IMG/VR virus record: IMGVR_UViG_3300006924_000113
Coordinates: 1-29,087 of that record
Direction: 5' to 3' (one strand)
DNA: 29,087 bases
Origin: a virus
Taxonomy: Duplodnaviria > Caudoviricetes
A program made the position numbers and the translations under genes. Shown one piece after another: positions 1,274 to 16,926 of the stretch; position 1 is the first letter of the stretch; each line of letters begins with the position of its first letter. Under the pieces are notes generated by a model, which did no database searches, was not told the origin of the DNA, and worked only from the letters and a program-made list of their open reading frames with translations.

Positions 1274-2902
1274 TTATTGATCATCTACTTTTCTTGCGTG
1301 AGTAATTATAGCGTTAGTGCTAAGTATTGTTGTAGCTACACTTACCGCATTTAATAAAGCTAAACGAGTTACTTTTAAAGGATCAATGACTCCCATTTTA
1401 AACATATCTCCATACTTTTCGTTTTTAACATCATAACCATGGTCTTTTGGCAAGGCCCATGATTTAGAAAGAATTGCAGAAGCACCTTCATCATTAATAC
1501 CTGCATTATCTAATATTTGATAAAAAGGCTTGCACATTGCGTGTCCTAAAATAACATCTGCAACATCTTTGTCATCAAACTCATCTTCAGGCTTTTCCTT
1601 AAACCTCTGAACCTCAAGGTGTTCCCCAATAGCAAATAAAGAAGAACCTCCTCCCTTTACAATCCCTTCTTCTAAAGCACTACGAACAGCACATACAGCA
1701 TCTTCTACCCTATCATATTTTTCTTTTTGCTCTACATCAGAATTACCTCCAACATAAATAGCTCCAATAGAACCTGATAAACTTGCGATACGCTCATTGA
1801 TAAACTCTCTATCTGAAACTATATCTGTATTTTTTTGCTGTTCTTTTAATTCTTTAATTCTATTTTGTATCTCTTCAGTTAACTGATCACTTTTTATTAT
1901 AACAGTTTGATTTTTACCAGATATAATTTTATCAGCATGACCTAAGTCATCCATTGTAATCATATTTAAATTATCACCTGTTTTTTCTGAAAAGTATTTT
2001 GCCCCAACAGACAACGCGATGTCTTGCATAAGCTCGTGTTGTTTATATCCAAAGTTTGGAGGTATAATATTACATAGCTTAAGTCCGTTACGCACCACGT
2101 TTGCTGCCAGGGTATTCACAACATTAGGCGAGCAAGCCCCAATGATGAGAAGTTTCTTGTTTTGTTGTATTACTGGTTTTAATATATTTTCTATTTGAAG
2201 TATATTACTTATCTCTTGATCACAAACTAAAACTAAAGCATCCTCTAATACTGCTTCGTCATTTTTTTGATTAGTGATAAATAAATTAGAAGTATAACCT
2301 CTATCAACTTTTATTCCGTTTGTAACTGTTGCATAAGTCTCATGGTTTTGAGAACTCTCAACTGTAACTATTCCATTGACTCCAACTTTTTTATAAGCCT
2401 CTGAAATAATCTTACCTAACTCTGGATCATTGTTTGAAGAAATAGTAGCAACATCTTTTAATGTTGAAGAAGTAACTTTGCGACTCTGTTTTTTTAATTT
2501 AGAAACAACATTGTCAGCAGTCTTTTTTATATTCCGAACAACATCAGTTACATTATGTTCTGGTTGTAAAAACTTTTCACCAGCCTTTACCAAAGCTTCA
2601 GTCAAAACAATTGCAGTAGTAGTTCCATCACCAGCAGAATTAGCAGTTCTTCGAGCCGCATCTTTCATCATAGTAATAGCCAAGTTCTCTACAGGATCTA
2701 TTAATGATATAGATTCCGCAACAGTAACTCCATCTTTTGTAATTGTAATTCCTTGCGTGTGATTAGAAGATTCTATTAAAACAGTTTTTCCGCGTGGGCC
2801 TAAAGTGCTTTTTACAGCTTTAGATATTTTTGTTATTCCGCTAATTAATTTGTTTCTTCCGACTTGATCGAACTCAAGATCCTTTGGTATGTAGTTGCTC
2901 AT
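1274..2902 (-). CDS. groEL: Chaperonin GroEL (Cpn60), phage-type
   Basis: 542 aa; TLGPRG, ITKDGVTVA, AGDGTTTA, EDAVCAVRSALEEGIVKGGG and GVIDPLKV motifs; no C-terminal GGM tail. Confidence 0.97.
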   Translation of the reverse strand: MSNYIPKDLEFDQVGRNKLISGITKISKAVKSTLGPRGKTVLIESSNHTQGITITKDGVTVAESISLIDPVENLAITMMKDAARRTANSAGDGTTTAIVLTEALVKAGEKFLQPEHNVTDVVRNIKKTADNVVSKLKKQSRKVTSSTLKDVATISSNNDPELGKIISEAYKKVGVNGIVTVESSQNHETYATVTNGIKVDRGYTSNLFITNQKNDEAVLEDALVLVCDQEISNILQIENILKPVIQQNKKLLIIGACSPNVVNTLAANVVRNGLKLCNIIPPNFGYKQHELMQDIALSVGAKYFSEKTGDNLNMITMDDLGHADKIISGKNQTVIIKSDQLTEEIQNRIKELKEQQKNTDIVSDREFINERIASLSGSIGAIYVGGNSDVEQKEKYDRVEDAVCAVRSALEEGIVKGGGSSLFAIGEHLEVQRFKEKPEDEFDDKDVADVILGHAMCKPFYQILDNAGINDEGASAILSKSWALPKDHGYDVKNEKYGDMFKMGVIDPLKVTRLALLNAVSVATTILSTNAIITHARKVDDQ

Positions 2903-2922
2903 TGTATTTAATTTAATTTAAA

Positions 2923-3145: not shown

Positions 3146-3161
3146 ATTATACATATTATAC

Positions 3162-3188: not shown

Positions 3189-3214
3189 CTTCAAAATAAA
3201 AATTAGTGAGTGAA

Positions 3215-3427
3215 CTAAAATCTTAATTGTCTGAAATGTTTTTTGTTATCAGCAAGCTCTATAGCTTCAGATATTTGGTTAACCTTGCGGTCATTTTTTA
3301 CAGCTCTTTTTATAGAAGCTGCTTTTTGAATACCAGTCATTGAATCTGGTCTATCGTTTATTAACCTTCCATCTTTCACGTAAAGTCCGTTAACAAAGTC
3401 TCTTGGGTTTAAGTTTTTGCTATGCAT
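3215..3427 (-). CDS. Hypothetical protein (70 aa), monocistronic
   Basis: ORF flanked by its own -7 box upstream and a terminator downstream. Confidence 0.75.
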   Translation of the reverse strand: MHSKNLNPRDFVNGLYVKDGRLINDRPDSMTGIQKAASIKRAVKNDRKVNQISEAIELADNKKHFRQLRF

Positions 3428-3451
3428 GATATTATTCTTTTAGTTAAAAAA

Positions 3452-3459
3452 CAAATATA
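3452..3459 (-). promoter_or_regulatory. Bacteroidota -7 promoter box (TATATTTG)
   Basis: TAnnTTTG match 24 nt upstream of the ATG at 3427. Confidence 0.55.
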
Positions 3460-3594
3460 CTAAAAAAAATTTTTTTTATTCAGACATATAGAACTTGAGG
3501 GTAATACATACACATACGTTGACGATCCCCAAAAGGAAAACGATTTTTTTTAAAAAAGTCAAATCAAATGCTAAAATATTTTTTCCAATGTTTT

Positions 3595-3730
3595 GGCGTT
3601 TTGCTACGAGCAACAGCACAGCACCAGGAACACGCGCCGAGGCCGTACCGCCTCGCCACGTTTCGCCCTTCCGCGGTTACTCCTGGCACGCTCTCCACCG
3701 CTCGCGCGCTCCATTGCTCCAGGAAAGAGA
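3595..3730. other. GC-rich structured non-coding island at the divergence point
   Basis: Abrupt GC-rich tract in AT-rich flanks; near-perfect palindrome CGAGGCCGTACCGCCTCG (3638-3655), CCAGGA/TCCTGG arms (3624-3629, 3681-3686), TTGCT-ACG-AGCAA (3601-3613). Confidence 0.6.
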
Positions 3731-3923
3731 AGATCCCTTTGTTAAACTTTTAATATTAGATCTTTTTTACACTTCAAGACATTGAAGGTTATACCTCCGC
3801 GAACGCTTAAAATATTAAATGTTTCTTATTTATATTGATTATAAATTACGTTTATAACTTGCACATTATCAGCACGTTACACGCTCAAGATATTTGTAAC
3901 AAGTATATAATTTAAAAAAACGC

Positions 3924-3953
3924 TTGTATAACTTAAATATTAAACTATCTTTG
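3924..3953 (+). promoter_or_regulatory. Main early promoter (Bacteroidota consensus)
   Basis: TTG(3924-3926)-N19-TATCTTTG(3946-3953), a full consensus match, 35 nt before the first rightward gene. Confidence 0.8.
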
Positions 3954-3988
3954 AACAAAATATAAACATTAACCCATAAATTAACATT

Positions 3989-4219
3989 ATGCATTCAATA
4001 CAAGTAAAAGTAAAAAGCGAAGTTTTAAGACAGTTAAACAATATTAAAATAGACGCGCAAGAGGTTAAAAATTTAGTTGATTTCGGAAACCCAACAGAAA
4101 AAGCAATAACTGAAGATTTTACCGCGGAAAAATTAGAAGCGAACGGAGTTTTTGACCTTGTCAGTAATTTAGAAGACGAAATTAAAACCTTAAAAATGCT
4201 TTTAAACTTATTAAAATAA
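3989..4219 (+). CDS. Early hypothetical protein (76 aa)
   Basis: First ORF after the early promoter; stop is immediately followed by hairpin repeat 1. Confidence 0.75.
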   Translation: MHSIQVKVKSEVLRQLNNIKIDAQEVKNLVDFGNPTEKAITEDFTAEKLEANGVFDLVSNLEDEIKTLKMLLNLLK

Positions 4220-4221
4220 TA

Positions 4222-4250
4222 TAAACCAGGGCGCAGAAATGCGCCCACAA
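4222..4250 (+). repeat. Intergenic hairpin repeat, copy 1 (variant stem)
   Basis: TAAACCA-GGGCGCA-GAAA-TGCGCCC-ACAA. Confidence 0.92.
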
Positions 4251-4260
4251 TTAAAAAACT

Positions 4261-4647
4261 ATGTTACGCACAAACTCAAAAAAATATCTTTCAAATATTC
4301 AAAATTATTTGCTTGATGCAATCAATACAGACGACCACACAACAGAAGCAACAACACACGCGGAAAAATTGGCCTTTGTTATGTCTTGTTATGAATCAGA
4401 ATTTAACCACAGATTCAACCAGGCACGACACCCAAACGAACAAACGCGGTTTGCTCATTGGCTTGCTGGCCTTCCTTCGGTTTTAAATATTCCATTTTAT
4501 AACGATGATATTGTAAAACTTGCAAAACGCCTCCAGGAAGTTGACACCTACCCAAACGAAAAAAACACCACAAAACGAATAGTTGAAAACTATTTCAATT
4601 TTATGGCGTACCACATTTTAAAACTAAATGCAAAACTTAATAAATAG
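4261..4647 (+). CDS. Early hypothetical protein (128 aa)
   Basis: ORF fills the space between repeats 1 and 2. Confidence 0.85.
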   Translation: MLRTNSKKYLSNIQNYLLDAINTDDHTTEATTHAEKLAFVMSCYESEFNHRFNQARHPNEQTRFAHWLAGLPSVLNIPFYNDDIVKLAKRLQEVDTYPNEKNTTKRIVENYFNFMAYHILKLNAKLNK

Positions 4648-4650
4648 ATC

Positions 4651-4679
4651 TAAACCAGGGAGCGGAAACGCTCCCACAA
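4651..4679 (+). repeat. Intergenic hairpin repeat, copy 2
   Basis: TAAACCA-GGGAGCG-GAAA-CGCTCCC-ACAA. Confidence 0.95.
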
Positions 4680-4689
4680 ATTTAATTTT

Positions 4690-4935
4690 ATGACCACATT
4701 TGAAACACTTACAGAAGACCAAAGAAGCGCAATTTTAGAGGCTAAAAATTTGGTAACGATTGAAGACCTCAGCGCCTTAAGTTATGGCGAAGATTTAGAG
4801 CTAACAAATAAAGTTTGTTTATCTCATTACTGCGAAGATGATATTATAGTTTTAAACCTTTCCGAAGAATGGGAAGAAGTATTTCAAATACTTTTTAATA
4901 CAGATACCGAAGAAATAATTTTTGAATCAATATAA
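4690..4935 (+). CDS. Early highly acidic protein (81 aa)
   Basis: ORF fills the space between repeats 2 and 3; about 20 D/E versus 3 K/R. Confidence 0.85.
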   Translation: MTTFETLTEDQRSAILEAKNLVTIEDLSALSYGEDLELTNKVCLSHYCEDDIIVLNLSEEWEEVFQILFNTDTEEIIFESI

Positions 4936-4938
4936 TTA

Positions 4939-4967
4939 TAAACCAGGGAGCGGAAACGCTCCCACAA
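4939..4967 (+). repeat. Intergenic hairpin repeat, copy 3
   Basis: Identical to copy 2 over 29 nt, followed by TACC. Confidence 0.95.
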
Positions 4968-4979
4968 TACCGCAAAAAA

Positions 4980-5246
4980 ATGACTATCACAATGACAAGA
5001 ACAAAGCAAGAAAAAAACCCAAGTACAAAAACCACGTTTTTACCTGGTGTTACATTTGTTGAAGAAATCACAGAGCGCGAATATAATTTAATAACTAAAG
5101 ATGAAACGCTTAAGGCCTTCAGAAGAGCAGGAGGCAAAGAACACGCGGAGCGCTCGTATACTTGTAGAGGCTACAACGTAGTAAAGTTAACAAGCACAAG
5201 CCCAACAAACCAAACAAGAATAATAAGAGAATTTAAATTTCAATAG
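4980..5246 (+). CDS. Early hypothetical protein (88 aa)
   Basis: ORF starts 12 nt after repeat 3. Confidence 0.8.
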   Translation: MTITMTRTKQEKNPSTKTTFLPGVTFVEEITEREYNLITKDETLKAFRRAGGKEHAERSYTCRGYNVVKLTSTSPTNQTRIIREFKFQ

Positions 5247-5248
5247 AT

Positions 5249-5413
5249 ATGAAAAAAATAATCACAATAGTAATTTGTTTAATATTTGCAACGCCAACGC
5301 TTACAAGTTGTAGCGCCTCCAGGCAATGTAAAACGTCAAAGTATAAAAAGAAAATGTATACTAAAAAATGTTGGAATGCAAAACGCCAAAAATATACAAG
5401 ATGCCGAAGATAA
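5249..5413 (+). CDS. Small basic lipoprotein (54 aa; not in the ORF track)
   Basis: MKKIITIVICLIFATPTLTS-CSASRQCKTSKYKKKMYTKKCWNAKRQKYTRCRR: MKK start, hydrophobic stretch, lipobox LTSC; starts 2 nt after the previous stop. Confidence 0.75.
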   Translation: MKKIITIVICLIFATPTLTSCSASRQCKTSKYKKKMYTKKCWNAKRQKYTRCRR

Positions 5414-5565
5414 AAACAGAGATAACGGAGTTAATAAAATTCCGCAATCAATACGAAAACGCGACAACAGAAGCGCGATTTATTGAGGCCGAAGAGTATT
5501 TATGTAAGGTACACGATAAATTTGGAACAATAGAAGTTTCAGCGATTAGAAATTTAATTAAGTAG
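5401..5565 (+). CDS. Early hypothetical protein (54 aa)
   Basis: Likely start MPKIKTE at 5401 within track ORF 5368..5565; stop is followed by repeat 4. Confidence 0.7.
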   Translation: MPKIKTEITELIKFRNQYENATTEARFIEAEEYLCKVHDKFGTIEVSAIRNLIK

Positions 5566-5567
5566 TA

Positions 5568-5596
5568 TAAACCAGGGAGCGGAAACGCTCCCATAA
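5568..5596 (+). repeat. Intergenic hairpin repeat, copy 4
   Basis: TAAACCA-GGGAGCG-GAAA-CGCTCCC-ATAA followed by TACC. Confidence 0.95.
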
Positions 5597-5606
5597 TACC
5601 AAAGTT

Positions 5607-5873
5607 ATGAAGTATACAAATCAATTTATTAAAATAGGTAACAAACAAGTAAAGCAAATAAATAAAACAGAGGCTAAAAAAGTATATGATAAAGGCCATG
5701 ATCTTTATTTAAACGCTTGCAATATGATGTTAAATAATTCCTGGACAAGCCCAATGTTATTAAATAACGGATCTTCTGAAAAGTTTGAAACAATGGTAAA
5801 CGAGTACGAGTATTATAATTGTTGCAGTGAACGAGGAAAGTACGCAAATTATTTTATTAATGTAAATAAATAA
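5607..5873 (+). CDS. Early hypothetical protein (88 aa)
   Basis: Starts 10 nt after repeat 4; tightly packed with the next gene. Confidence 0.85.
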   Translation: MKYTNQFIKIGNKQVKQINKTEAKKVYDKGHDLYLNACNMMLNNSWTSPMLLNNGSSEKFETMVNEYEYYNCCSERGKYANYFINVNK

Positions 5874-5876
5874 GTT

Positions 5877-6155
5877 ATGGAGTATAAGTCTAACATTATC
5901 AAAATAGGTAATAAAGAATTAATGACAAGTGGTAACAGAGAGGTTATGAATATAGAAACAATAACAAACGATGACACGCGAGATGTCTCAATTAGAATTG
6001 TAGATTTTTTAATAAATAATGAATTTATAAAGTATAAAGAAGGAAATTATCCCTTCGAGATACAAGACGAAATACACGAAGAAATAAATAATTTAATAAA
6101 CATAAGTGAACAAAACGAACAAGTAATAATCGAAAGTAAAATAAATAAGTTATGA
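5877..6155 (+). CDS. Early hypothetical protein (92 aa)
   Basis: 3 nt after previous stop; ATGA overlap with next gene; N-terminus resembles that of 5607..5873. Confidence 0.8.
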   Translation: MEYKSNIIKIGNKELMTSGNREVMNIETITNDDTRDVSIRIVDFLINNEFIKYKEGNYPFEIQDEIHEEINNLINISEQNEQVIIESKINKL

Positions 6156-6346
6156 AAGCATATAAACGAAGAGTAAAATACACGCAAGAGTATATTAACA
6201 AATCAGATCTAAAGGAAATAAATAAAATTATAATGGATCAAAATTGGAGTAGGCCTTTTTTATTAAGAATGTGTTTTGATAGAGCGCTTGAATTAGGATA
6301 CAAGGGAACATTTCCAGTAACTAAATGGGATACCGATGAAGTTTAA
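6152..6346 (+). CDS. Early hypothetical protein (64 aa)
   Basis: Coupled overlaps on both sides. Confidence 0.75.
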   Translation: MKAYKRRVKYTQEYINKSDLKEINKIIMDQNWSRPFLLRMCFDRALELGYKGTFPVTKWDTDEV

Positions 6347-6596
6347 ATTAAGAGCGACAAGCAACGTAAAAGCGTTTTACCTGGCCAAATATTCAACAGA
6401 TGAATTAGGCCAGGAAATCGATAGCAACATAAATTTCAAAATGGTTTTTGAATGCCTTGACAACTATCAAGAAATATACGACTTAATAGGCGTTTGCGAT
6501 AGCCTGGTTAGGGAAAGAATTTTCGAAGCGCTTGCCGAAATAATGAATGTAGAATATGACTACATATATCACCAATGGTTAGGTAATTCAAATTAA
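6336..6596 (+). CDS. Early hypothetical protein (86 aa)
   Basis: In-line ORF in a packed operon. Confidence 0.8.
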   Translation: MKFKLRATSNVKAFYLAKYSTDELGQEIDSNINFKMVFECLDNYQEIYDLIGVCDSLVRERIFEALAEIMNVEYDYIYHQWLGNSN

Positions 6597-6612
6597 AGAA
6601 AGTTTAAAAAAC

Positions 6613-6643
6613 TTGCACAAGATGTTTATAATAACTATATTGC
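6613..6643 (+). promoter_or_regulatory. Possible second early promoter
   Basis: TTG(6613-6615)-N20-TATATTGC(6636-6643), a variant -7 box, in the gap before the ATG at 6673. Confidence 0.45.
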
Positions 6644-6672
6644 AGAAAATTAATCTAATTAAATATAAAAAA

Positions 6673-7113
6673 ATGAGAGTAATTAAAACAAAAGTTTATC
6701 AGATACACGAACACCCAGGCAAAGAACTATGCTTTAAATGGATCAGAGAAAATTTTCACGACTTGAATGAATTTTCAGTGTACGAGTTAGTTGATAGTAT
6801 AAAAAAATTAAGCCAGGAAATAGGCGGAAGAAACGATTATTCAATCAGCCAAAGCCCATGCCGAGGCGAGTACATAAAGTTTAGTGAGTACGATCAATTG
6901 GCCTTGGATAGCCTGGAAGCGGATAAGTGTGAATTAACAGGTACATTTTGGGATCAAGAAATAATTGAAGGATTGAAAAACAATTCTCTAAATAATGTAT
7001 TGAAACAATTACACCAGGAGACTGAATATGTTTATTCTGATGAAGGTTTAACGGATCTTTGTGAGGCTAATGAATATGAATTTACAGAAAACGGATCATT
7101 AATATATAATTAA
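6673..7113 (+). CDS. Conserved phage protein resembling the family often auto-annotated 'antitoxin of toxin-antitoxin stability system'; function unverified
   Basis: N-terminal MRVIKTKVY and C-terminal EYVYSDEG..DLCEANEYEFTENG patterns recalled from that family; start moved to the ATG at 6673. Confidence 0.65.
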   Translation: MRVIKTKVYQIHEHPGKELCFKWIRENFHDLNEFSVYELVDSIKKLSQEIGGRNDYSISQSPCRGEYIKFSEYDQLALDSLEADKCELTGTFWDQEIIEGLKNNSLNNVLKQLHQETEYVYSDEGLTDLCEANEYEFTENGSLIYN

Positions 7114-7118
7114 AAGTT

Positions 7119-7400
7119 ATGAGCAAAAACGAAACCATTAAATTTTTAGGCCACAGAATTGAGGCAATGCAAGGAGAGATAAATAAACTTTCCAGGAGTA
7201 AAGAAAAGGATACCATTAACATAGAGTATGCTGATATAAGGGAAGACTTAATACAATTCTATGAACTTGATGTTGATAATTGTAGAATGAGTAACCTGGA
7301 TTGGATCAGAGAGATAGCCTTGTTAATATGTACAAATCATTATAAGTATCAAATATTATCAGAAGTAGAGCAGTATAAAGCAATAAGAAAAAATTTATAA
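7119..7400 (+). CDS. Early hypothetical protein (93 aa)
   Basis: Packed ORF. Confidence 0.8.
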   Translation: MSKNETIKFLGHRIEAMQGEINKLSRSKEKDTINIEYADIREDLIQFYELDVDNCRMSNLDWIREIALLICTNHYKYQILSEVEQYKAIRKNL

Positions 7401-7402
7401 TT

Positions 7403-7804
7403 ATGAGCGAGCAAGAACAAGAAAAAATAGTAAGCCTGGAAGCAGATAGGTTATTAAGAAACGCATTAGATAAAAAAGCATTTGCGGAAAAATTGAAAGT
7501 AAGAAGCGTAAGGTATTTTAATACTCGAAGAGGCCTTGGATATGAAGCGCAAACAAATCAAATGAATGTTGTTATATGGAATGACGGAAACGGAGGCGGT
7601 ACGTATATCGCTCCATATTATCCATATACAAAAGATTGTAGCGACATAATGGAAAACGAGGCCTATTTAGAAGGCTTAATTGATCAGTACGAAGGAATAA
7701 CCCTGGAGGATAAAGAAAGAATAATTGAAGATCACACAGAAAAATTATTATTCCAGGAAAGATTTAACGGAGAGAACAACACAGAACATTTAAAACCATA
7801 TTAA
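7403..7804 (+). CDS. Early hypothetical protein (133 aa)
   Basis: Packed ORF with a WNDGNGGGT motif. Confidence 0.8.
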   Translation: MSEQEQEKIVSLEADRLLRNALDKKAFAEKLKVRSVRYFNTRRGLGYEAQTNQMNVVIWNDGNGGGTYIAPYYPYTKDCSDIMENEAYLEGLIDQYEGITLEDKERIIEDHTEKLLFQERFNGENNTEHLKPY

Positions 7805-7826
7805 TTAATAAATAAAATCAAATAAA

Positions 7827-8492
7827 ATGAAACTATTAAAAACACAGAAGCACACAGATTATGTAAGATTTGGGTTTACGTTTAACACCACAAATGGAAA
7901 AGGTTTAGACTTTGAGACTCATGTAAACGGAGGCCTAACAAACCAGGAATTTGGAGAAGTAAAATTCCTGGACATTGAAGATTTAGATTATGATACAAAC
8001 TTTACAATGTTTGGAGAAAAAACTCAATACACAAAATTTAGAGACTTTTACAGAGAATTGTATGGACACGCAAAGTTTGATCAATTAATAAAAAGTATTG
8101 AAGACAGATGCGAAAAAGAAATATTAGACCATTACGAAAATACATTTGAGTATTTGTCTGTAAAACAATTAAGGGATATTCTATGCCATATAATAGGTTA
8201 TGATAAAAAGAAAAATACCTGGAAGGCTGATAAAAATATTACCAACAAACCTGGAGACAATGTAAAAATTACAGACGGAGAAGGCGGTATCTATTGGACA
8301 AGTAATTGGTATGTGAAAAGAGTAATTAAGCGTTTAGCTGATGCTCAAATTAAAAGCGGTAAAAAATTAGGAGACTTTTTTGATGATCCAAAGCAATTAC
8401 CTATAAAGCAATTCATAACAAATAATTGCAAATACCAAGGAGTAGAAATACACGATGTTTTAAATTTAATTGAAAGAACTAAAAAATATTAA
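7827..8492 (+). CDS. Early hypothetical protein (221 aa)
   Basis: Long ORF with A-rich start context. Confidence 0.85.
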   Translation: MKLLKTQKHTDYVRFGFTFNTTNGKGLDFETHVNGGLTNQEFGEVKFLDIEDLDYDTNFTMFGEKTQYTKFRDFYRELYGHAKFDQLIKSIEDRCEKEILDHYENTFEYLSVKQLRDILCHIIGYDKKKNTWKADKNITNKPGDNVKITDGEGGIYWTSNWYVKRVIKRLADAQIKSGKKLGDFFDDPKQLPIKQFITNNCKYQGVEIHDVLNLIERTKKY

Positions 8493-8494
8493 TA

Positions 8495-8788
8495 ATGAAG
8501 GTAAAAATACAAGTAAGACGGATCTACCATAAATTTGCTGAAATTGAAACAGATATTGATGAAAATGAATTTGATCATTATCGAATAGACAATGGTAAAT
8601 ACACAAGTATAGATGAATTTATAATTTATAAGGAAGAGGATTGGATAGACGATCTTGAGCATAAAATGAATGAATCAGAATTTGTTCTTGGAAATGGAAT
8701 AGATGATTTGGAAGGTATGAACGAAGTAGAGTCAGAATCAGAGTATAGGTATGAATGTGAAAAATTAAGAATCGGAGGCCACTTATGA
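8495..8788 (+). CDS. Acidic early hypothetical protein (97 aa)
   Basis: Packed ORF, ATGA overlap with next; about 27 D/E. Confidence 0.8.
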   Translation: MKVKIQVRRIYHKFAEIETDIDENEFDHYRIDNGKYTSIDEFIIYKEEDWIDDLEHKMNESEFVLGNGIDDLEGMNEVESESEYRYECEKLRIGGHL

Positions 8789-9009
8789 AAACAAAAGGAA
8801 CATACTCAATAGTTGAAGATAACTATGAATTAGATATAAATTACGAATTTTATTGGAATGACGGAGATAATGAGTACCCTCCTGAAGCTGATTTAGAAAT
8901 AGAAAATGTAGAATTAAACGGAGTAGATATAACAGACTTTTTTTGGGATTGGGTAAACGATGATCTCAATACCAAGGTATGGGAATACGCTCAAGAAAAT
9001 AAATATTAA
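8785..9009 (+). CDS. Highly acidic, aromatic-rich early protein (74 aa)
   Basis: About 20 D/E versus 4 K; coupled start. Confidence 0.8.
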   Translation: MKTKGTYSIVEDNYELDINYEFYWNDGDNEYPPEADLEIENVELNGVDITDFFWDWVNDDLNTKVWEYAQENKY

Positions 9010-9014
9010 TAATT

Positions 9015-9224
9015 ATGGCATACGCGGAAACACAAAAAGACAGAGACTTTAATAAGATAACCGAACTAATGGGAGATTTTATAGAAGCAACAAACGAGAT
9101 CAACAAAATTAAACCTCAAATATCCTGGTTTAATGACTTTGTAGACTTTGTTCAAGAATATGATAACGGAATTTATAACCAGGCTTGTATATGGGCTGAT
9201 AAAATGCAAAACAATGGGATATAG
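9015..9224 (+). CDS. Early hypothetical protein (69 aa)
   Basis: Packed ORF. Confidence 0.75.
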   Translation: MAYAETQKDRDFNKITELMGDFIEATNEINKIKPQISWFNDFVDFVQEYDNGIYNQACIWADKMQNNGI

Positions 9225-9552
9225 TAGTCAAGTAATAATAGGAATACCAAAAACAGAAAAGGTAAGATTGTTTAAACTTCAAAACTCTGAAAGGCGTTTT
9301 GTTTTTCCAGATTTATTTTCCCTTTTAAAAGAAACAAAAGACGGAATGATGATATACACAAGTATCTTTGATCTGAAATGGTATAGCCCTTATCCAGATG
9401 TAAAAATAATTGAAGATTTTTTATATGATCTCGAAGAGAGAGGCCTGGAGGCTTTTCAAATTTGCATAGGAGAAGACCAGGTTGTTCACTCTGAAATAGG
9501 AAGGTATTACGAACACCTGGAAATAAATTTACAAGTAAATATATACGATTAA
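9214..9552 (+). CDS. Early hypothetical protein (112 aa)
   Basis: Likely start MGYSSQV at 9214 within track ORF 9148..9552. Confidence 0.8.
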   Translation: MGYSSQVIIGIPKTEKVRLFKLQNSERRFVFPDLFSLLKETKDGMMIYTSIFDLKWYSPYPDVKIIEDFLYDLEERGLEAFQICIGEDQVVHSEIGRYYEHLEINLQVNIYD

Positions 9553-9577
9553 ATTAGTATTTATAATTGTTTTACAC

Positions 9578-9585
9578 TATATTTG
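9578..9585 (+). promoter_or_regulatory. Bacteroidota -7 box (TATATTTG) ahead of the middle genes
   Basis: TAnnTTTG in the intergenic gap 32 nt before the ATG at 9618; -33 element weak. Confidence 0.55.
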
Positions 9586-9617
9586 TGAACTAAGTTTAAC
9601 TAAAATTTAATCAAATT

Positions 9618-9806
9618 ATGGACGATACACTACGAATGCTATTTGAGTCATTCAACCCTCAAAACCCACAAGCAAGGAACACCGCTATACACATGGCTAT
9701 GTGTTCAAACATTATTAATAACATTAATGATGATGAAGAAGATCCTTTGGATACAAGCCAGGAGGTTACTACTATGGAAGATGACGATTATCCTTTAGGT
9801 ATTTAG
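9618..9806 (+). CDS. Hypothetical protein with acidic C-terminus (62 aa)
   Basis: ORF after the promoter box. Confidence 0.7.
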   Translation: MDDTLRMLFESFNPQNPQARNTAIHMAMCSNIINNINDDEEDPLDTSQEVTTMEDDDYPLGI

Positions 9807-9808
9807 TT

Positions 9809-9916
9809 ATGGGAAGAGAAGATAAAAATATGAAACTTGTAGCATGGTCATTCATTGGAGCGATCTCTTGCTTAATTGCTATTCAATTATATAAATTTAT
9901 AAAATGGTTAATATGA
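9809..9916 (+). CDS. Small single-pass membrane protein (35 aa; not in the ORF track)
   Basis: MGREDKNMKLVAWSFIGAISCLIAIQLYKFIKWLI; 2 nt after previous stop, ATGA overlap with the next gene. Confidence 0.65.
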   Translation: MGREDKNMKLVAWSFIGAISCLIAIQLYKFIKWLI

Positions 9917-10170
9917 ATTATACAGAAACCAGGACAGACGAACTTCAGTGTACCGAAGATAAAACTATTAAAGTAGACACTCCTTCTTATTATGATGGTA
10001 AAAATAATTACACCGCAATAGATGTTGTGAATAATTTTGATTTGAATTATAATTTAGGAACTGCTTGTACTTATATTTTAAGAGCATACAGAAAACATAA
10101 CACGCCTAATGAAGATCTTCAGAAGGCTATAAATCATTTACAATTTGAATTAAATAAAATTAATCAATAA
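9913..10170 (+). CDS. DUF3310 family protein (T7 gp1.7 nucleotide-kinase-like)
   Basis: 'VDTPSYY...AIDVV...YNLGTACTYILRAYRK...EDLQKAINHL' pattern; start at 9913 by ATGA coupling. Confidence 0.8.
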   Translation: MNYTETRTDELQCTEDKTIKVDTPSYYDGKNNYTAIDVVNNFDLNYNLGTACTYILRAYRKHNTPNEDLQKAINHLQFELNKINQ

Positions 10171-10472
10171 TGAAGAAACAAATATTTGATGACTATGCTA
10201 CTGCGGTAGCAAAAAAGTTTCATCTAACTTTAGATGAAATGTTTACCTCTACAAGACGAGGAGATATAGTAGATGCCAGGCAAATGCTATATTATTTATG
10301 TATGGAAAGACCAATAAGAATATCTTACATACAAAGGTTTTTGGAAACCTATGATTTTAAGGTAACCCATTCAACTATAATACATGGATATAATAAAGCA
10401 AAAGATCTAATAAGTAATGATACCGATGTTAATGATTTAGTCCAGGAGATATTAAAAGATAATAATGTATAA
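10170..10472 (+). CDS. Stand-alone DnaA C-terminal (domain IV) HTH protein
   Basis: 'VAKKFHLTLDEMFTSTRRGDIVDARQMLYYL...HSTIIHG' matches Bac_DnaA_C. Confidence 0.85.
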   Translation: MKKQIFDDYATAVAKKFHLTLDEMFTSTRRGDIVDARQMLYYLCMERPIRISYIQRFLETYDFKVTHSTIIHGYNKAKDLISNDTDVNDLVQEILKDNNV

Positions 10473-10878
10473 TTTAAACCAAGTTTTTATTCAAGCTAAA
10501 TCATGTAGTAATAGCATTCAAGAAGATATGCCTTATGGTGAAAGTGTTTTAAGTAAAGGTATAAAGATTCAAAAGTTTAGTGATAGGATTGAAATATTAG
10601 ATCTAAACAGAAATGGAGATTATTACAAGGTAATTGAAAGTGATCATTATGATTTCTTTTATGAGTATGGTTGGATAATAGGTTGTTTAAAATTAAACAT
10701 TGAAAATTGCTTATTTAAATTAAAACTAATTGAGTCAAAGATAAAGACAGAGGTAAACACTCGAAAGAACGATAAGCATATACAGAACTTAAAAAATAAA
10801 AGAGAAGCCATACTATTAAAGTATGCAAACAAAATAAAAGATTTAAATTTAAAATTAAATACAAATGAGCAAAAATGA
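10465..10878 (+). CDS. Hypothetical protein with coiled-coil-like C-terminus (137 aa)
   Basis: Coupled overlaps on both sides. Confidence 0.75.
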   Translation: MYNLNQVFIQAKSCSNSIQEDMPYGESVLSKGIKIQKFSDRIEILDLNRNGDYYKVIESDHYDFFYEYGWIIGCLKLNIENCLFKLKLIESKIKTEVNTRKNDKHIQNLKNKREAILLKYANKIKDLNLKLNTNEQK

Positions 10879-11485
10879 AAATTACTTTAAAGAATTGGTT
10901 GCAAAAGATGTTTCCAAGCACGTAAAAAAGAAAGGAAATTTTAATTATTTATCCTGGGCAATAGCCTGGAACTATTTAAAACAATCAAACCCAGGAGCGC
11001 AACGTATAGTGTATGAGGCGCAAGAAACAGGTTTGAATTGGTTTTCTGACGGAATGACTGGCTATGTAAAAGTAGGTATAATAGTGAATGATATAGAGCA
11101 TATTGATTATTTACCTATTAAAGATTTTAGGCATAACTCTATTACTGTTGACAAAATAACTTCTATGGACGTTAACACTGCAATTCAAAGAGCAACTGCA
11201 AAAGCTATTGCTATGCATGGCCTTGGTTTAAGTCTTTATGCAAATGAAGATACTTTAATAATTCCAGAGATCCAGGAACATAAAAAGACACAGACCACAA
11301 CAAAACAAAAGACTGAAACTTTAATCACATTAGAGATTGGAGATATGAATTGGGCTAAAGTTTTAACTTACATATCAAAAAATAAAGAATTAGGTTTAGA
11401 GAAGATAGTAAAAAATCTTAAGTCTAAGTATAGTATAAAAGCAGTAGTGAAAAAAGAATTAGCTAAATCCTTTAAAAATGACTAA
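10865..11485 (+). CDS. Single-strand annealing protein, Sak/Rad52-like (DUF1071)
   Basis: 'DVSKHVKKKGNFNYLSWAIAW...YLPIKD.R...DVNTAIQRATAKAIAMHGLGLSLYA.ED' motifs. Confidence 0.88.
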   Translation: MSKNENYFKELVAKDVSKHVKKKGNFNYLSWAIAWNYLKQSNPGAQRIVYEAQETGLNWFSDGMTGYVKVGIIVNDIEHIDYLPIKDFRHNSITVDKITSMDVNTAIQRATAKAIAMHGLGLSLYANEDTLIIPEIQEHKKTQTTTKQKTETLITLEIGDMNWAKVLTYISKNKELGLEKIVKNLKSKYSIKAVVKKELAKSFKND

Positions 11486-12221
11486 AGCAGACATACTTAA
11501 AAACCTGGAAGACGATGCTAAATATTATGGAGATTTTGGTCAGCAATATCTATCAAACTCAGACATAGGAAAGTTATTAAAGAATCCTACTCAGTTTAGA
11601 GTAAGTAATGAATTTACAAAGCCAATGCTTGAAGGTAGATATTTCCACACCAAAATATTAGAGCCACATAAAATAGGAGACTTCCAGGAGGTAGAAGCAT
11701 CAACAAGATCTACTACTAAATATAAAGAGGCTTTGGCTGAATCAAATGAGGAAATGCTTTTGCTTACAAAAGAAAGAGAGCAATTAGATTTTTTATGTAC
11801 TAAGATGACTTCTAATATGGAAATGTTTGATCTTATCTATGAAGAGAATAATGATTACGAAGTTCCAGAAATTCAAAAAATAATGAATTTAGATTGGAAG
11901 GGAAAGGCTGATATCTTAAACCATAAAAGTAATTTAATTATTGACATTAAAACAAGTTCGGATATCGATAAATTTATGTATAGTGCAAAAACCTATAATT
12001 ACGATAGTCAAGCCTACATATATCAAAGGTTATTTGGAAAGCCATTAATATTCCTGGTAATAGATAAAAGGACTGCAAGACTTGGTATATTTGAATGTTC
12101 TCAATCATTTATACAAGGAGGCCAGGAGAAAGTTGAGCAAGCGGTAGAAGTGTATCAAAAATATTTTAGTAATGAAGCGACTGAAGACATACATACATAC
12201 ATACATAGGCAGACTTTATAA
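11478..12221 (+). CDS. PD-(D/E)XK exonuclease, RecE/DUF3799-like
   Basis: 'LSNSDI', 'G.YFH..ILEP', 'KGKAD', 'IIDIKT', 'Y.YDSQAYIY'; adjacent to the annealing protein. Confidence 0.85.
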   Translation: MTKADILKNLEDDAKYYGDFGQQYLSNSDIGKLLKNPTQFRVSNEFTKPMLEGRYFHTKILEPHKIGDFQEVEASTRSTTKYKEALAESNEEMLLLTKEREQLDFLCTKMTSNMEMFDLIYEENNDYEVPEIQKIMNLDWKGKADILNHKSNLIIDIKTSSDIDKFMYSAKTYNYDSQAYIYQRLFGKPLIFLVIDKRTARLGIFECSQSFIQGGQEKVEQAVEVYQKYFSNEATEDIHTYIHRQTL

Positions 12222-12363
12222 AAACCTAAAAAGAACAAAGAAAAATACTATTATATGGATAAAAGTTCCAATGTCTTGTAATAGTGCAGAGCATAAAACT
12301 GAAGTTATGTTATCTGTAATTAGCTATATGGAGCAAACAATTAAAATTAATAAACATGAGTGA
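12172..12363 (+). CDS. Hypothetical protein (63 aa); start uncertain
   Basis: Fills the gap between exonuclease and SSB-like genes; 50-nt overlap upstream. Confidence 0.5.
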   Translation: MKRLKTYIHTYIGRLYKNLKRTKKNTIIWIKVPMSCNSAEHKTEVMLSVISYMEQTIKINKHE

Positions 12364-12634
12364 AGTAAAAGACAAAATTTACGTAGGAAGTGGAAAAGAA
12401 AAATTTGACGGAGACCAGGTAGCAGTATCTGTTTGCTTGTCAGATCTTCCAAAAGATTGGATTTTTGAGTACAACAACAAAAAGTATGTAAAACTTATTG
12501 TACAGAAAAAAAGAGAAACAGATCAATATGGTAAAACACATTATGTAGCCATTGATACATTTAAACCAGAGCAGAAGACAGAGCAGAAGGTTGTAGCTAA
12601 TGCAGTGGACGAAGGAGATGGGCTTCCTTTTTAA
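12356..12634 (+). CDS. Putative single-stranded DNA-binding protein
   Basis: Small beta-rich protein with acidic tail ending DEGDGLPF, typical of SSB C-termini; position in the recombination module. Confidence 0.65.
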   Translation: MSEVKDKIYVGSGKEKFDGDQVAVSVCLSDLPKDWIFEYNNKKYVKLIVQKKRETDQYGKTHYVAIDTFKPEQKTEQKVVANAVDEGDGLPF

Positions 12635-12655
12635 TTAATCCTAACTGAATAAAAT

Positions 12656-12679
12656 AGGGAGTTTACGCTCCCTTTTTTT
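12656..12679 (+). terminator. Intrinsic terminator after the SSB-like gene
   Basis: AGGGAGT-TTAC-GCTCCCT followed by a T tract. Confidence 0.8.
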
Positions 12680-12689
12680 ATCTTTTGTC

Positions 12690-12873
12690 TCGTGTCGAAT
12701 GACAGAAATTTAACTCTACAAAGAGATCTATAGAAAAAAATATAAAACAACTACTTCTTTATCTACATTATTATTATATATTATTGACATTTTCGACATT
12801 AAAATATATAAGTAACTAATAAAGAGATAGTTAAGTAAAATAAAATCAACATAAAATCAACATAAAATGGACA
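12690..12873. repeat. Origin-like intergenic element, copy B, with 11-bp tandem repeats
   Basis: TGTC-GAAT-GACA (12693-12704), AT-rich tract, GACATTTTCGACATT (12786-12800), AAAGAGATAGTTA (12821-12833), TAAAATCAACA x2 plus TAAAATGGACA (12841-12873) overlapping the primase ATG. Confidence 0.75.
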
Positions 12874-15278
12874 TAACCATATTTAAAGACATAAAACAGA
12901 CATCACAACCCTTCTACAGAAATATAAACCTGGTGTTAAAAAGAATACAAGATGGATCTTCCAAGGATATAGTTAAAAAAATACGTGCCGAAAAAGATAA
13001 GAATAATAGGAACATATTAAAGCAAAAACTACCAGCAATTTGTTTTAGTGGAAAATTTACAAAACGAAATGACAAAGCTTTAAAAGAGCATAGTGGTTTG
13101 ATATGCTTGGACTTTGATGGGTACAAGTCAAGTAAAGATTTATTACAAGAAAAAGAAAAGCTTTCAAAAGATAAATATGTTTATGCAGTATTTATTTCTC
13201 CAAGTGGTAATGGCTTAAAAGTTTTAGTTAAAATACCTCCAATTACAGAGAATCATAAAAGCTACTTCCTAAGCCTTCAAAAACATTTTGATAGCGATTA
13301 CTTCGATAAGTCTTGTAAAAACGTCTCAAGAGTCTGCTATGAGTCTTATGATCCATTAATTCACATAAACGCTCAGTCAAGTTTATGGGACAGCATACAA
13401 GAACAAGAATACAACGAAGTAAATAAGAATACTGATATACCAACAATACCAGTAACGGATGAAAATAAAATAGTAGAAATATTAGTTAAATGGTGGGAAA
13501 AGAAATTTCCCATGAATGAAGGAGAAAGAAACAATAATGCTTATGTTTTGGCTGCCGCTTTAAATGATTTTGGAGTATACCAATCTTTAGCTGAGTCAGT
13601 ATTAAATAATTATCAAACAAAAAATTTTGATAGAGAAGAGATAAGAAGGACAATACGAAGTGCTTATTCTAATAAGCATAATTTTGGTACAAAGTATTAT
13701 GAAGATGAAGATCGCCTTAACAACTTAAGAATGAAGTTAAAAAGAGGTGTACCAAAAAAAGAAATTAGATCTCAATTGCAAGAGTCAGATATTGAGGTCG
13801 CTACCATAGACAATGTGTTGGCTCGTTTAGATGAAGAAAATGCAAACAATCAGTTTTGGACAAAAAACGACAAAGGAGTTATAAAAATAGTTCACATACT
13901 TTTCAAGCAATTCCTGGAGGAGAATGGATTTTATAAGTTTAACCCTGAAGGAAGTAAGAATTATGTTTTTGTAAGAGTAACTAACAACTTAATAGATCAC
14001 ACTTCTGAGAAAGAAATAAAAGATTTTATTTTAAACTATCTATTAGAAGTAGACGATCTAAGTGTTTATAATTATTTTGCTGAACATACCAGGTATTTTA
14101 GAGAAGAGTTTTTAACCCTTCTGTCATCTATTGCGGTTTATTTTATAGAAGATACAAAAGATAGTGCCTATCTGTATTATAAAAATTGTGCAGTAAAAAT
14201 AACTAACAATCAACTTATAAAAATCGACTACTTAGATTTAGGTGGTTACGTATGGAAAGATCACGTAATAGATAGAGTTTTTAATGAATGTGATGCAGAA
14301 AGTTGTGATTACCAGCAATTTATTAAAAACATTTGTGGTAAAGATGATAACAGAGTTAATTCTATGAAGTCAACAATAGGGTATTTACTTCATGCCTGGA
14401 AAAACTTATCCTACTGTCCAGCAGTAATATTAAATGATGAGGTAATATCAGATAATCCAGAAGGAGGAACAGGTAAGGGTATTTTTATGAACGCCTTGAG
14501 TCATATGAAAAAATTAGTATTTATAGATGGTAAGTCGTTTAATTTTGAAAAAAGCTTTGCTTATCAAACTGTTAGTGTTGATACTCAAATATTATGTTTT
14601 GATGATGTGAAGAAGCATTTTGACTTTGAAAGATTATTTTCTGTTGTTACAGAAGGCTTAGTCCTGGAAAAGAAAAATAAAGATGCTATAAAAATTCCAT
14701 TTAGTAAATCACCTAAAGTCTCTATAACAACAAATTACGCTATCAAAGGTAAAGGATCATCTTTTGAAAGAAGAAAATGGGAATTAGAATTAGCCCAGCA
14801 CTACACCAAAGATTTTACACCACTTATGGAATTTGGAAAACTTATGTTTGGAGAATGGGATGATGATGAATGGTGTCAATTTGATAATTATATGATAAGT
14901 TGTGTTCAAACTTATATGAATCATGGCCTTATAAAATCAAAATTTATAAACCTAAAGACAAGACAATTATCAGCAGAAACTTGTCACGAATTTTTAGAAT
15001 GGAGCGGAGAAATAGGTGGAGGATCACAACACGAAAAATTAAAGCAAGCTGGAAGGGTATACAAGAGTGACCTATATTTAGATTTTGTTGAAGACAATCC
15101 AGACTTTGCTCCAAAGTCTAAGTTTACTGTTTCACGAACTAAATTTTATAAATGGCTTACTGCTTATTCTGTATACAAATACAATTGCAAACCTGAAGAA
15201 GATAGAGATTCACAAGGTAGATGGATAAGGTTTAGAAGTAAGCACGAGTTAGAAGAAAACGGAAGATTAGATTTTTAA
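12867..15278 (+). CDS. Primase-helicase: BT4734/VirE-N-like AEP domain, PriCT domain, P-loop (SF3-like) helicase
   Basis: 'KLPAICFSGKF', 'SGLICLDFD', 'FISPSGNGLK', 'SRVCYESYDP'; 'GERNN'; Walker A GGTGKG and Walker B ILCFDD. Confidence 0.9.
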   Translation: MDITIFKDIKQTSQPFYRNINLVLKRIQDGSSKDIVKKIRAEKDKNNRNILKQKLPAICFSGKFTKRNDKALKEHSGLICLDFDGYKSSKDLLQEKEKLSKDKYVYAVFISPSGNGLKVLVKIPPITENHKSYFLSLQKHFDSDYFDKSCKNVSRVCYESYDPLIHINAQSSLWDSIQEQEYNEVNKNTDIPTIPVTDENKIVEILVKWWEKKFPMNEGERNNNAYVLAAALNDFGVYQSLAESVLNNYQTKNFDREEIRRTIRSAYSNKHNFGTKYYEDEDRLNNLRMKLKRGVPKKEIRSQLQESDIEVATIDNVLARLDEENANNQFWTKNDKGVIKIVHILFKQFLEENGFYKFNPEGSKNYVFVRVTNNLIDHTSEKEIKDFILNYLLEVDDLSVYNYFAEHTRYFREEFLTLLSSIAVYFIEDTKDSAYLYYKNCAVKITNNQLIKIDYLDLGGYVWKDHVIDRVFNECDAESCDYQQFIKNICGKDDNRVNSMKSTIGYLLHAWKNLSYCPAVILNDEVISDNPEGGTGKGIFMNALSHMKKLVFIDGKSFNFEKSFAYQTVSVDTQILCFDDVKKHFDFERLFSVVTEGLVLEKKNKDAIKIPFSKSPKVSITTNYAIKGKGSSFERRKWELELAQHYTKDFTPLMEFGKLMFGEWDDDEWCQFDNYMISCVQTYMNHGLIKSKFINLKTRQLSAETCHEFLEWSGEIGGGSQHEKLKQAGRVYKSDLYLDFVEDNPDFAPKSKFTVSRTKFYKWLTAYSVYKYNCKPEEDRDSQGRWIRFRSKHELEENGRLDF

Positions 15279-15279
15279 T

Positions 15280-16509
15280 ATGGAGTTTAGAGACTATCAA
15301 AAAGAAATAATTAATAAAGCCAAGCCTCTATTGTTAAAAGATAAATTTGTTTATCTTGCAATGGAGGTAAGAACTGGTAAAACTCTCACGAGCTTGGGTG
15401 TAAGTGCGCTTTTGCCAGTCTCTAACCTTTTATTTATTACTAAGAAAAAAGCTATAAGCAGTATACAAGATGACTATAAACTTCTTGATCCTTCTTACAA
15501 TATTACTGTTATTAACTACGAATCACTTCATAAAATAGACCAGAGAGGCTGGGATATGGTAATCTGTGATGAGGCCCATGGTATGGGAGCGTTTCCAAAA
15601 AGAAACAAAAGATCAACGCAAGTTCGTTCTTTGATCTTAGAAAACAATCCTTTTGTAATATTCTTATCTGGAACACCAACACCTGAATCATTTAGTCAAA
15701 TGTACCATCAAGTATCAGTAGTTCGTAAACATCCATTTAGTGATTATGTAAACTTTTATAAGTTTTCTAAACAATACGTAAATGTTAAGCAAAGAAAAAT
15801 CAATTCTCTTTACATAAACGATTACTCAGATGGCCTACAATCAATTATTGATGAGATGAAACCACATACTATTTCTTATACTCAAAAAGAAGCTGGGTTT
15901 AAAATTAACACTAAAGAACATATTTTAGAAGTAGAGATGAGTCCGATGACATATCAACTAACAAATAAATTAAAAAAACATTTAGTTATTGAAGGAAGTG
16001 AAGACGTGATATTAGCTGATACTCCAGTAAAACTTATGATGAAGCTTCATCAAATGTATTCAGGAACTGTAAAATTTGAATCAGGAAACTCTATGATTAT
16101 TGATTTAAGTAAAGCAGAGTTTATACACGATAACTTTGCTGATGCTAAAATCGGTATATTTTATAAATTCAAGGAAGAGTTAAATGCACTAAAAGAAGTT
16201 TACGGAGATGGTTTATGTACTGATTTAGAAACATTTAACGAAACAAATAAAACCATAGCTTTGCAAATCGTAAGCGGAAGAGAAGGAATATCTCTACGGA
16301 AAGCTGAATGTCTGGTATATTATAATATTGATTTTTCAGCTACCAGTTACTGGCAGTCCAGGGATCGTATGACAACTAAAGAAAGATTGGAAAGCGATGT
16401 TTATTGGGTATTTTCAAAAGATGGTATAGAAAAAGAAATATACAAGGCTGTTACAAAGAAAAAAGATTACACCCTAAGACATTTTAAAAGAGATCTATTG
16501 TCCTTATGA
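15280..16509 (+). CDS. Superfamily 2 (SNF2-like) helicase
   Basis: MEVRTGKT, ICDEAH, LSGTP, GREGISL, YWQSRDR motifs. Confidence 0.9.
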   Translation: MEFRDYQKEIINKAKPLLLKDKFVYLAMEVRTGKTLTSLGVSALLPVSNLLFITKKKAISSIQDDYKLLDPSYNITVINYESLHKIDQRGWDMVICDEAHGMGAFPKRNKRSTQVRSLILENNPFVIFLSGTPTPESFSQMYHQVSVVRKHPFSDYVNFYKFSKQYVNVKQRKINSLYINDYSDGLQSIIDEMKPHTISYTQKEAGFKINTKEHILEVEMSPMTYQLTNKLKKHLVIEGSEDVILADTPVKLMMKLHQMYSGTVKFESGNSMIIDLSKAEFIHDNFADAKIGIFYKFKEELNALKEVYGDGLCTDLETFNETNKTIALQIVSGREGISLRKAECLVYYNIDFSATSYWQSRDRMTTKERLESDVYWVFSKDGIEKEIYKAVTKKKDYTLRHFKRDLLSL

Positions 16510-16730
16510 AGTTTATAAAATTTTTTTTAATTTGGTACAGTCAACAAATGGCAATACCATTTTGGGTAATTGGACACGTACATTTACACTTTGCAACCTG
16601 GCATGACCTATATGAATACGCTTTGTCTATTGTTTTACATATAATGGTAGGAATTGGTTTTTGGATTGACTGGAAACAAAACGGATATGACGGAACAACA
16701 GATACAGAACAAAAGAATAAAAGAACTTGA
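16506..16730 (+). CDS. Small membrane protein (two hydrophobic segments)
   Basis: ATGA coupling to the helicase; hydrophobic aromatic-rich segments. Confidence 0.6.
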   Translation: MKFIKFFLIWYSQQMAIPFWVIGHVHLHFATWHDLYEYALSIVLHIMVGIGFWIDWKQNGYDGTTDTEQKNKRT

Positions 16731-16926
16731 AGGAGAAGGGTATTATGTTATAAAACTGAAACTTACAAATAAAAATGGTATACCTGATTTGATAGCGCTT
16801 CCTCCAGGATGTGATGTTCTTTTCTCTGAAATAAAAAAACCAAAAGGAGTATTGTCTGATCTTCAAAAGTTTAGAATAAAAGAATTAAAAAAATATGGGT
16901 TTAAAACTGAAGTATATAAAGGATGA
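16687..16926 (+). CDS. VRR-NUC-like nuclease / Holliday junction resolvase
   Basis: 'MTEQQIQ...GIPDL...FSEIKKPKGVLSDLQKFR' PD-(D/E)XK pattern; start at 16687. Confidence 0.85.
   Translation: MTEQQIQNKRIKELEGEGYYVIKLKLTNKNGIPDLIALPPGCDVLFSEIKKPKGVLSDLQKFRIKELKKYGFKTEVYKG

Follow-up and report, generated by a model that had tools for sequence, protein, structure and literature searches.

The stretch analysed here, termed the window, comprises all 29,087 nucleotides of IMG/VR record IMGVR_UViG_3300006924_000113. It is a linear virus record of 29 kb, 47% complete, that encodes groES/groEL, a series of small early genes, the single-strand annealing protein Sak, an exonuclease, a primase, an SNF2-type helicase and a presumed virion protein of 2309 residues. 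Its early arm (3624..12419) hoards the palindromic pentanucleotide CCWGG (that is, CCAGG or CCTGG), with 46 sites in this core zone: 39 in early genes, four in intergenic hairpin repeats and three in a GC-rich patch. The genes concerned are a plus-strand cluster of some 22 small early genes, most of them without annotation and many of them acidic (3989..10878), in which CCWGG occurs at silent positions, and, on the same strand, the Sak gene (10865..11485) and a PD-(D/E)XK exonuclease gene (11478..12221), each with four sites. On the left the zone is adjoined from outside by groEL (minus strand, 1274..2902), which has one CCWGG and normal AGCT and GCWGC content and thus marks a sharp boundary; on the right it passes into a more weakly enriched shoulder over the primase/helicase module (12420..18620), where genes contain 9 sites versus 2.0 expected and where 12 of 13 silent positions within sites are kept versus 8.5 expected.

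CCWGG occurs within the core zone at 5.23 sites per kb (27 CCAGG and 19 CCTGG), the expected total being 3.4 sites from base composition or 6.3 from an order-2 Markov model, and the best Poisson change points of its density fall at 3624 and 12416. Elsewhere there are 3 sites in 1-3623, 10 in 12420-18800 and 12 in 18801-29087 (0.83, 1.57 and 1.17 per kb, respectively); near-complete relatives carry about one per kb across the remainder of their genomes. A first-pass annotation, made by a model from the sequence, had arrived at exactly the same 46 sites, with the same split, and at the same 3 and 10 outside (for the last 10.3 kb it gave about 11, rather than 12), and had described the enrichment as restricted to this region: its left edge is indeed sharp, but the replication genes to its right are also enriched, so that its right edge is a shoulder. 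Its remark that CCSGG is absent from the zone is accurate as well, but provides no region-specific control, because CCGG (like CTAG) is missing from the entire window and CCSGG with it.

The sites fall, as the same annotation stated, in all three reading frames (5, 9 and 26 of 40, three of these being in a doubtful open reading frame above the non-coding patch), and seven lie outside accepted genes. Both orientations are enriched (22 versus 5 and 18 versus 3 expected), and the strand split of 27:19 (p 0.30) reveals no polarity; Chi, by comparison, is polar. Spacing is not significantly regular in the window (coefficient of variation 0.88, p 0.26) and is borderline in relatives (p 0.02-0.10). 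A longer motif surrounding CCWGG was rejected, as no flanking base is fixed. GATC, with 32 copies versus 25 expected, is not clearly enriched but merely unpurged.

Selection for CCWGG density

The 24 early genes contain 39 CCWGG sites, compared to 7.3 under synonymous-codon shuffles (z 17), making it the top pentanucleotide; 5.5 are expected with late-gene codon usage, and a null model that penalizes 18 purged patterns, including one-step neighbours of the motif, yields a mean of 11-12 and a maximum of 16 among samples. Codon bias, amino-acid bias, late-gene codon usage and sinks created by word avoidance are thereby rejected as sources of the motif. So are repeats: all four copies of the hairpin repeat do contain CCAGG, as had been claimed, yet they supply just 4 of the 46 sites. 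Hence the enrichment survives codon-preserving shuffles and is not uniform over the genome, the two outcomes that the first-pass annotation had proposed as decisive for its suggestion of DNA-level selection; that suggestion is further supported by rare-codon use and by the retention of silent positions. Among leucine codons that precede a G in early genes, 11 of 69 are CTG, and all 11 of these follow a C, the corresponding late-gene figure for CCTGG being 0 of 150; among glutamine codons that precede a G, 15 of 40 are CAG (one of the 15 sitting in the doubtful open reading frame), again all after a C, compared to 2 of 96 in late genes.

Silent G or C positions are retained within CCWGG far more often than outside of it: 63 of 63 versus 379 of 500 in comparison with relative L010 (p 1e-7), and 53 of 54 versus 341 of 464 in comparison with relative L006. 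Two sister-group pairs behave similarly (18 of 19 versus 102 of 157, p 0.008; 20 of 20 versus 138 of 173, p 0.03), the pairs used in these tests sharing ancestry. Broken down by position relative to L010, the first C is kept at 25 of 25, the second C at 8 of 8, the first G at 26 of 26 and the last G at 4 of 4, and the single change is at W; in late genes, by contrast, retention within CCWGG is without significant excess (28 of 34 versus 24.8 expected). Selection thus maintains CCWGG in the early arm at all four defining bases and on both strands. At the same time individual sites turn over: of the 17 that can be aligned between the window's group and its sister group, 7 coincide, while density is 4-5 per kb in both groups. 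Therefore, the selected property is the density of the palindromic pentamer.

Purging, hoarding and the likely host

Of 194 loci compared, 134 include 4.5 kb or more of the early arm; they form 46 clusters, only two of which reach 3 or more CCWGG per kb there: the window's own (17 loci) and that of L073 (8 loci). Early arms of 21 clusters have no CCWGG and those of 28 have at most one; when 39 other clusters are pooled, their early arms hold 61 sites over 347 kb and their downstream parts 176 over 316 kb. In a tree of the exonuclease (one gene, 48 rows, midpoint root) the two hoarding clusters form a single clade (100/99) within a 100/99 group. Comparison with related phages, for which the first-pass annotation had called, thus finds hoarding in the window's clade alone among the 46 sampled lineages. 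The four lineages nearest to this clade have 0-1 CCWGG in the same arm (0-0.1 per kb). These sister lineages are poor in CCWGG, GATC, GCGC, CGCG and CCGC and keep AGCT, CATG, GGATG and GCTGT, whereas the clade does the reverse; that is, the avoided-word set and the switch of CCWGG from purged to hoarded changed on the same branch. Such a swap of the whole set on one branch suggests a host shift along the branch leading to the hoarding clade. Five early genes are private to this clade.

The words that the clade avoids delimit a zone (3319..13550) that is free of GCWGC and in which AGCT, GGATG and GCTGT are scarce or absent. GCWGC is last seen at 3318 and next at 13551; AGCT has 21 copies in 1-3317 and one in 3318-8335; GGATG and GCTGT do not occur from 4 to 13 kb; and groEL, immediately to the left, is not depleted. 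Depletion of all four words is thus confined to the early region, where CCWGG itself is anything but depleted. Because this purged zone is so sharply bounded, the early arm likely enters the cell first: a sharp left edge and a graded right edge fit ordered entry from a genome end, here the left edge near 3.4-3.6 kb, and in Autographiviridae, according to extracts of PMC12455610, restriction is affected solely by those sites that are injected early. At the strand switch lies a non-coding patch rich in GC (3582..3741, plus strand), which carries the first three CCWGG sites and has a counterpart at a similar place in 24 groEL-anchored lineages; it is a candidate for the genome's left end. The comparison covers contigs, whose starts scatter.

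The window is part of a marine podophage genome of about 60 kb, whose host probably belongs to the Bacteroidota. MW202828, a 60.9-kb record described as Podoviridae and having a P22-like portal, is the only named phage to match the primase over its full length; other named-phage matches are mostly to phages of Flavobacterium, Nonlabens, Polaribacter and Cellulophaga. Matches in GTDB, which are at most 74% identical, lie mostly in Bacteroidota-labelled bins and some in others, and sequencing runs containing the stretch are marine wherever a habitat is named. Taken together, these point to Flavobacteriales as the likely host order. Among 401 Flavobacteriaceae genomes no CRISPR spacer matched the phage, there being three short matches without an array.

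A survey of 301 Flavobacteriales genomes for enzymes that could write or read the motif found 21 Dcm-like matches at E 1e-40, the five closest being 57-60% identical. All five adjoin nucleases of the EcoRII or MvaI/BcnI families, a pairing that accounts for the purging of CCWGG in the sister lineages. DUF1998 occurs in 13 of the 301 genomes; six of these loci were fetched and four scanned, and DrmA and DrmB, components of the DISARM defence, are present in all four. DUF4007 occurs in 11 genomes, with SspC and SspD at both loci checked, an association established at the level of the order. In terms of the host search proposed in the first-pass annotation, for DISARM or CCWGG methylases, the likely host order does contain drmAB operons, but the two C5 methyltransferases found adjacent to them are not Dcm-like. 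At one drmAB locus (L302, G123:C1:402000-421999) an Argonaute, an AAA restriction-type ATPase and two methyltransferases lie in the same gene run.

What the hoarded word may signal

Phage evolution against restriction is taught as the avoidance of sites; here this is reversed for a classic restriction word, and precisely where the closest relatives purge it. Because classic restriction punishes sites, hoarding requires a system that rewards them. One proposal, held as an even bet, is that this is a counter-defence without a gene: the host's modification motif would be written densely into the leading DNA, and the previous host would stamp it with 'self' marks, which would then serve as a passport past defences directed at unmarked DNA. 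A more specific version, favoured tentatively and at somewhat less than an even chance, is that CCWGG, once methylated by the host, turns off a DISARM-like sensor that responds to unmarked DNA on its entry. The phage would have shifted to a group of hosts in which CCWGG is invariably methylated, and the word would then no longer be a cutting risk; the host would methylate CCWGG on progeny DNA; and, with the early arm likely entering the next cell first, its dense marks would switch off a defence that attacks unmarked incoming DNA. If the sensor is repressed by the mark, then more sites would be better until early anti-defence genes act.

According to extracts of 10.1101/2021.12.28.474362, class 2 DISARM (DrmMII) places 5-methylcytosine at the same CCWGG motif, methylation is an off switch for the system, and methylating added motifs raises plasmid entry 82-134-fold, the motif-free control giving 21-fold; according to extracts of PMC9142583, methylation represses DISARM, for which detection of DNA during injection is proposed. 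Methylation of CCWGG is reported for marine viral genomes whose kinship is unstated in the extracts of 10.1101/2021.11.30.470565 and PMC8919816. Nevertheless DISARM is a host system, not a phage trait, and these extracts describe no escape by motif hoarding.

Several further points weigh against the proposal of a methylated off-switch. All five close Dcm-like enzymes are nuclease-paired, none being an orphan; DUF1998 is present in only 13 of 301 genomes and does not mark DISARM in every case; and of the C5 methyltransferases beside drmAB, found at two loci, neither is Dcm-like (E 4e-21 and 3e-8), which, set beside the other evidence on DISARM, is why this version stays below even. In the extracts just cited, unmethylated motifs increase restriction by class 1 DISARM (plasmid entry falling up to 12-fold), phages were not protected in proportion to their number of sites, and modified phage is still blocked by the class 2 system. 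Nine further lineages are enriched in CCAG words having other fifth bases, a pattern for which a CCWGG methylase by itself is not sufficient. On the sequence side, two of the four sister-group pairs lack significant silent-site retention (p 0.23 and 0.14), CAG is kept often outside of the motif too (11 of 13), and AGGCC likewise exceeds expectation in the window's group (21 versus 4.5), its silent-site retention being non-significant.

The first-pass annotation also entertained a mark made by the phage, which is disfavoured because the gene map of the clade yielded no methyltransferase; its statement that none is visible in the window holds and extends to this map, which an overlap of 79 identical bases between contigs G002 and G011 closes. 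PF00145 is absent from the clade contigs (G001, G002 and G011-G015) and PF01555 from all five searched, and the open reading frames of G001 and G002 contain no catalytic methylase motifs; other adenine-methylase families were covered just by Pfam scans of 58 open reading frames and by the motif search. None is thus detectable, a divergent enzyme being possible. Nor did searches of Pfam, PADLOC, NCBIfam and the ESM Atlas reveal a phage-encoded CCWGG reader.

Of the rival explanations, two fare best, each rated as unlikely though well above the rest. The first, and the main one, takes the selected unit to be a CCAG core carrying an Ssp-type phosphorothioate mark placed by the host, while the restriction pressure on each lineage would determine the fifth base (G in this phage, C or T in others); since Ssp would mark only a fraction of CCAG sites, density would be needed to gather enough marks. 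In 11 of the 46 clusters CCAG is indeed at 1.4-2 times expectation (z at least 2.5), with a fifth base that is G here, C in L216 and T in L108 and L096, and it is nearly absent (0-1 versus 25-39 expected) from the early arms of five lineages (L002, L171, L172, L162 and L175), which implies that their hosts have a system strongly targeting CCAG. Over 24 lineages, the CCAG enrichment of early genes rises with the number of CCAG in the non-coding patch (Spearman 0.69, or 0.62 without three avoiders), although kin share values and the lineages are not phylogenetically independent. Ssp operons occur in the host order, as noted above.

Extracts of PMC12914056 (see also PMC11185561) state that Ssp modifies CCA motifs and that 10-15% of consensus sites carry phosphorothioate, and those of PMC11931770 report C*AG and C*CA motifs in gut metagenomes; self-marks of this kind (Ssp, BREX type 4) thus share CCA/CAG cores with the hoarded word, and their partial occupancy would reward density. 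On the other hand, the extracts of PMC12914056 and PMC11931770 describe neither a CCWGG phosphorothioate motif nor enrichment on the phage side. A CCAG unit would also require the separate purging of CCAGA, CCAGC and CCAGT here, a symmetric loss of both neighbour classes that a reader of palindromic CCWGG explains more simply, and CCAGT and CCAGC lack significant silent-site retention in the pairs tested.

The second of these rivals, about as improbable as the first, treats CCWGG as an unmodified docking word, bound either by a protein of the host, namely a translocase or a nuclease regulator (making the word a two-way analogue of Chi), or by an early or ejected phage protein that draws the leading DNA inward, coats it or transcribes it. 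No modification enzyme would be needed, and selection for density and the graded right edge both fit, as do the private early genes and a giant virion protein that is shorter than, and divergent from, those of the sister lineages. Chi hoarding near genome ends is known: extracts of PMC12315714 describe it for the lambdoid phages LLS and MD8, in which a short word read by the host accumulates in the direction of one end of the genome. Chi replaces a missing recombination module. The present phage encodes Sak and an exonuclease, and its CCWGG, enriched on both strands, lacks the strand polarity of Chi. Furthermore, no DNA-binding or modification family was found among the early proteins scanned or the eight giant proteins, the predicted fold of the largest private protein (221 residues, pLDDT 66) has no match at E 0.001, and the EcoRII/MvaI-type systems of the likely host order would cut an unmodified CCWGG array.

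Three remaining readings are weak. That methylated CCWGG serves to adjust early transcription or the timing of replication, instead of acting on defence, is improbable: sites within the hairpin repeat do precede several early cassettes, and the zone coincides with the early operon, but 39 of 46 sites are in coding sequence, their positions are unfixed, their spacing is near-random, and relatives with the same layout manage without CCWGG. A mutational by-product, either of very-short-patch (Vsr) repair or of a sink formed by avoiding neighbouring words, is more improbable still. Dcm/Vsr bias would likewise raise CCWGG and lower CTAG (absent from the window), Vsr genes adjoin Dcm-like enzymes in the host order, and extracts of PMC4687349 mention such repair turning CTAG into CCAG and, separately, an unexplained CCGG excess in Helicobacter. 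Yet the precursor CTTGG/CCAAG is not depleted (10 versus 11.7), whereas non-Vsr neighbours are; the effect is regional; and the avoidance-constrained null reaches only 16. Dcm/Vsr bias acts on one position and genome-wide, whereas here all four positions are constrained, and regionally only, including the outer C, which lies outside Vsr protection and is kept at 25 of 25; repair bias is thus largely refuted. Equally remote is the idea that the sites are decoys by which a restriction enzyme specific for CCWGG is titrated or kept occupied: the host order does have EcoRII-type enzymes that possess an effector-binding domain, but such enzymes are activated by additional sites, the decoys would sit in genes that need to stay intact, and the nearest relatives purge CCWGG from the same arm.

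CCWGG hoarding thus belongs to none of the known families with which it was compared and is a variant of self-word hoarding. It resembles the purging of restriction sites from first-injected DNA in Autographiviridae (extracts of PMC12455610, which cites T7 and T5) in that selection on words is confined to the early arm, and this phage purges GCWGC, AGCT, GGATG and GCTGT just as its relatives purge CCWGG and GATC; for CCWGG, however, the sign is reversed, to a five-fold gain under purifying selection. The open-access literature yielded site avoidance and Chi hoarding, but no description of a phage that accumulates a palindromic modification motif in its early arm, and extracts of PMC12926258 and 10.64898/2026.06.24.734251 add nothing on motif hoarding. 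If marks placed by the previous host do act as a passport, then the hoarded word would report the mark-sensing defence of each host, given that the same arm flips between purging and hoarding and that lineages hoard related CCAG words. Such phages would then offer a direct test of how DISARM- or phosphorothioate-type systems, lacking a fixed target, distinguish self from non-self; the more densely the DNA is marked close to the end that enters, the better it should be tolerated; and the host modification systems of uncultured phages would become inferable from sequence alone.

Other features of the window and its relatives

The four intergenic repeats, all on the plus strand (4220..4254, 4649..4683, 4937..4971 and 5566..5600), each carry CCAGG, which in the first copy runs into a 7-bp hairpin. 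In relatives there is no cassette between copies 2 and 3, and for this reason the repeats are probably recombination points for the exchange of early genes. Three of the four are terminator-like when read on the minus strand, and Rfam has no match to an RNA element in 1-19000. AGGCC/GGCCT, at 3640-9450, has 21-23 copies versus 4.5 expected in the window's group and is not enriched in the group of L073.

Other repeated words mark related phages. In the early and replication region of MW202828 (L002, 13245-24670) a 16-bp palindrome centred on GTTAAC has 14 copies, spaced like early genes, and CCAGH is missing from the whole of that genome; L197, L175, L162, L211 and L206 have other repeated words at similar places. 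A second burst, in the late region, of CCAGT/ACTGG (10, 14 and 24 per 2 kb) and of CCAGC occurs at about 22-28 kb of G010, in Sak-forward orientation, CCAGA being lost there.

The giant protein (18804-25733 in the window; 2309-2430 residues) is about 500-1100 residues shorter than relatives' versions, and its middle part is 63% identical in one relative that is otherwise about 92% identical; in eight proteins at this position Pfam gives one weak match and nothing else. SET-domain genes and DUF6445/2OG-Fe(II)-oxygenase-like genes next to the terminase (L111, 6592-7460; L112, 9070-9651) vary between close relatives. Upstream of groES/groEL there are short open reading frames very rich in lysine and arginine (30-467 in the window and 91-4928 in L326), which possibly encode DNA-condensing proteins.

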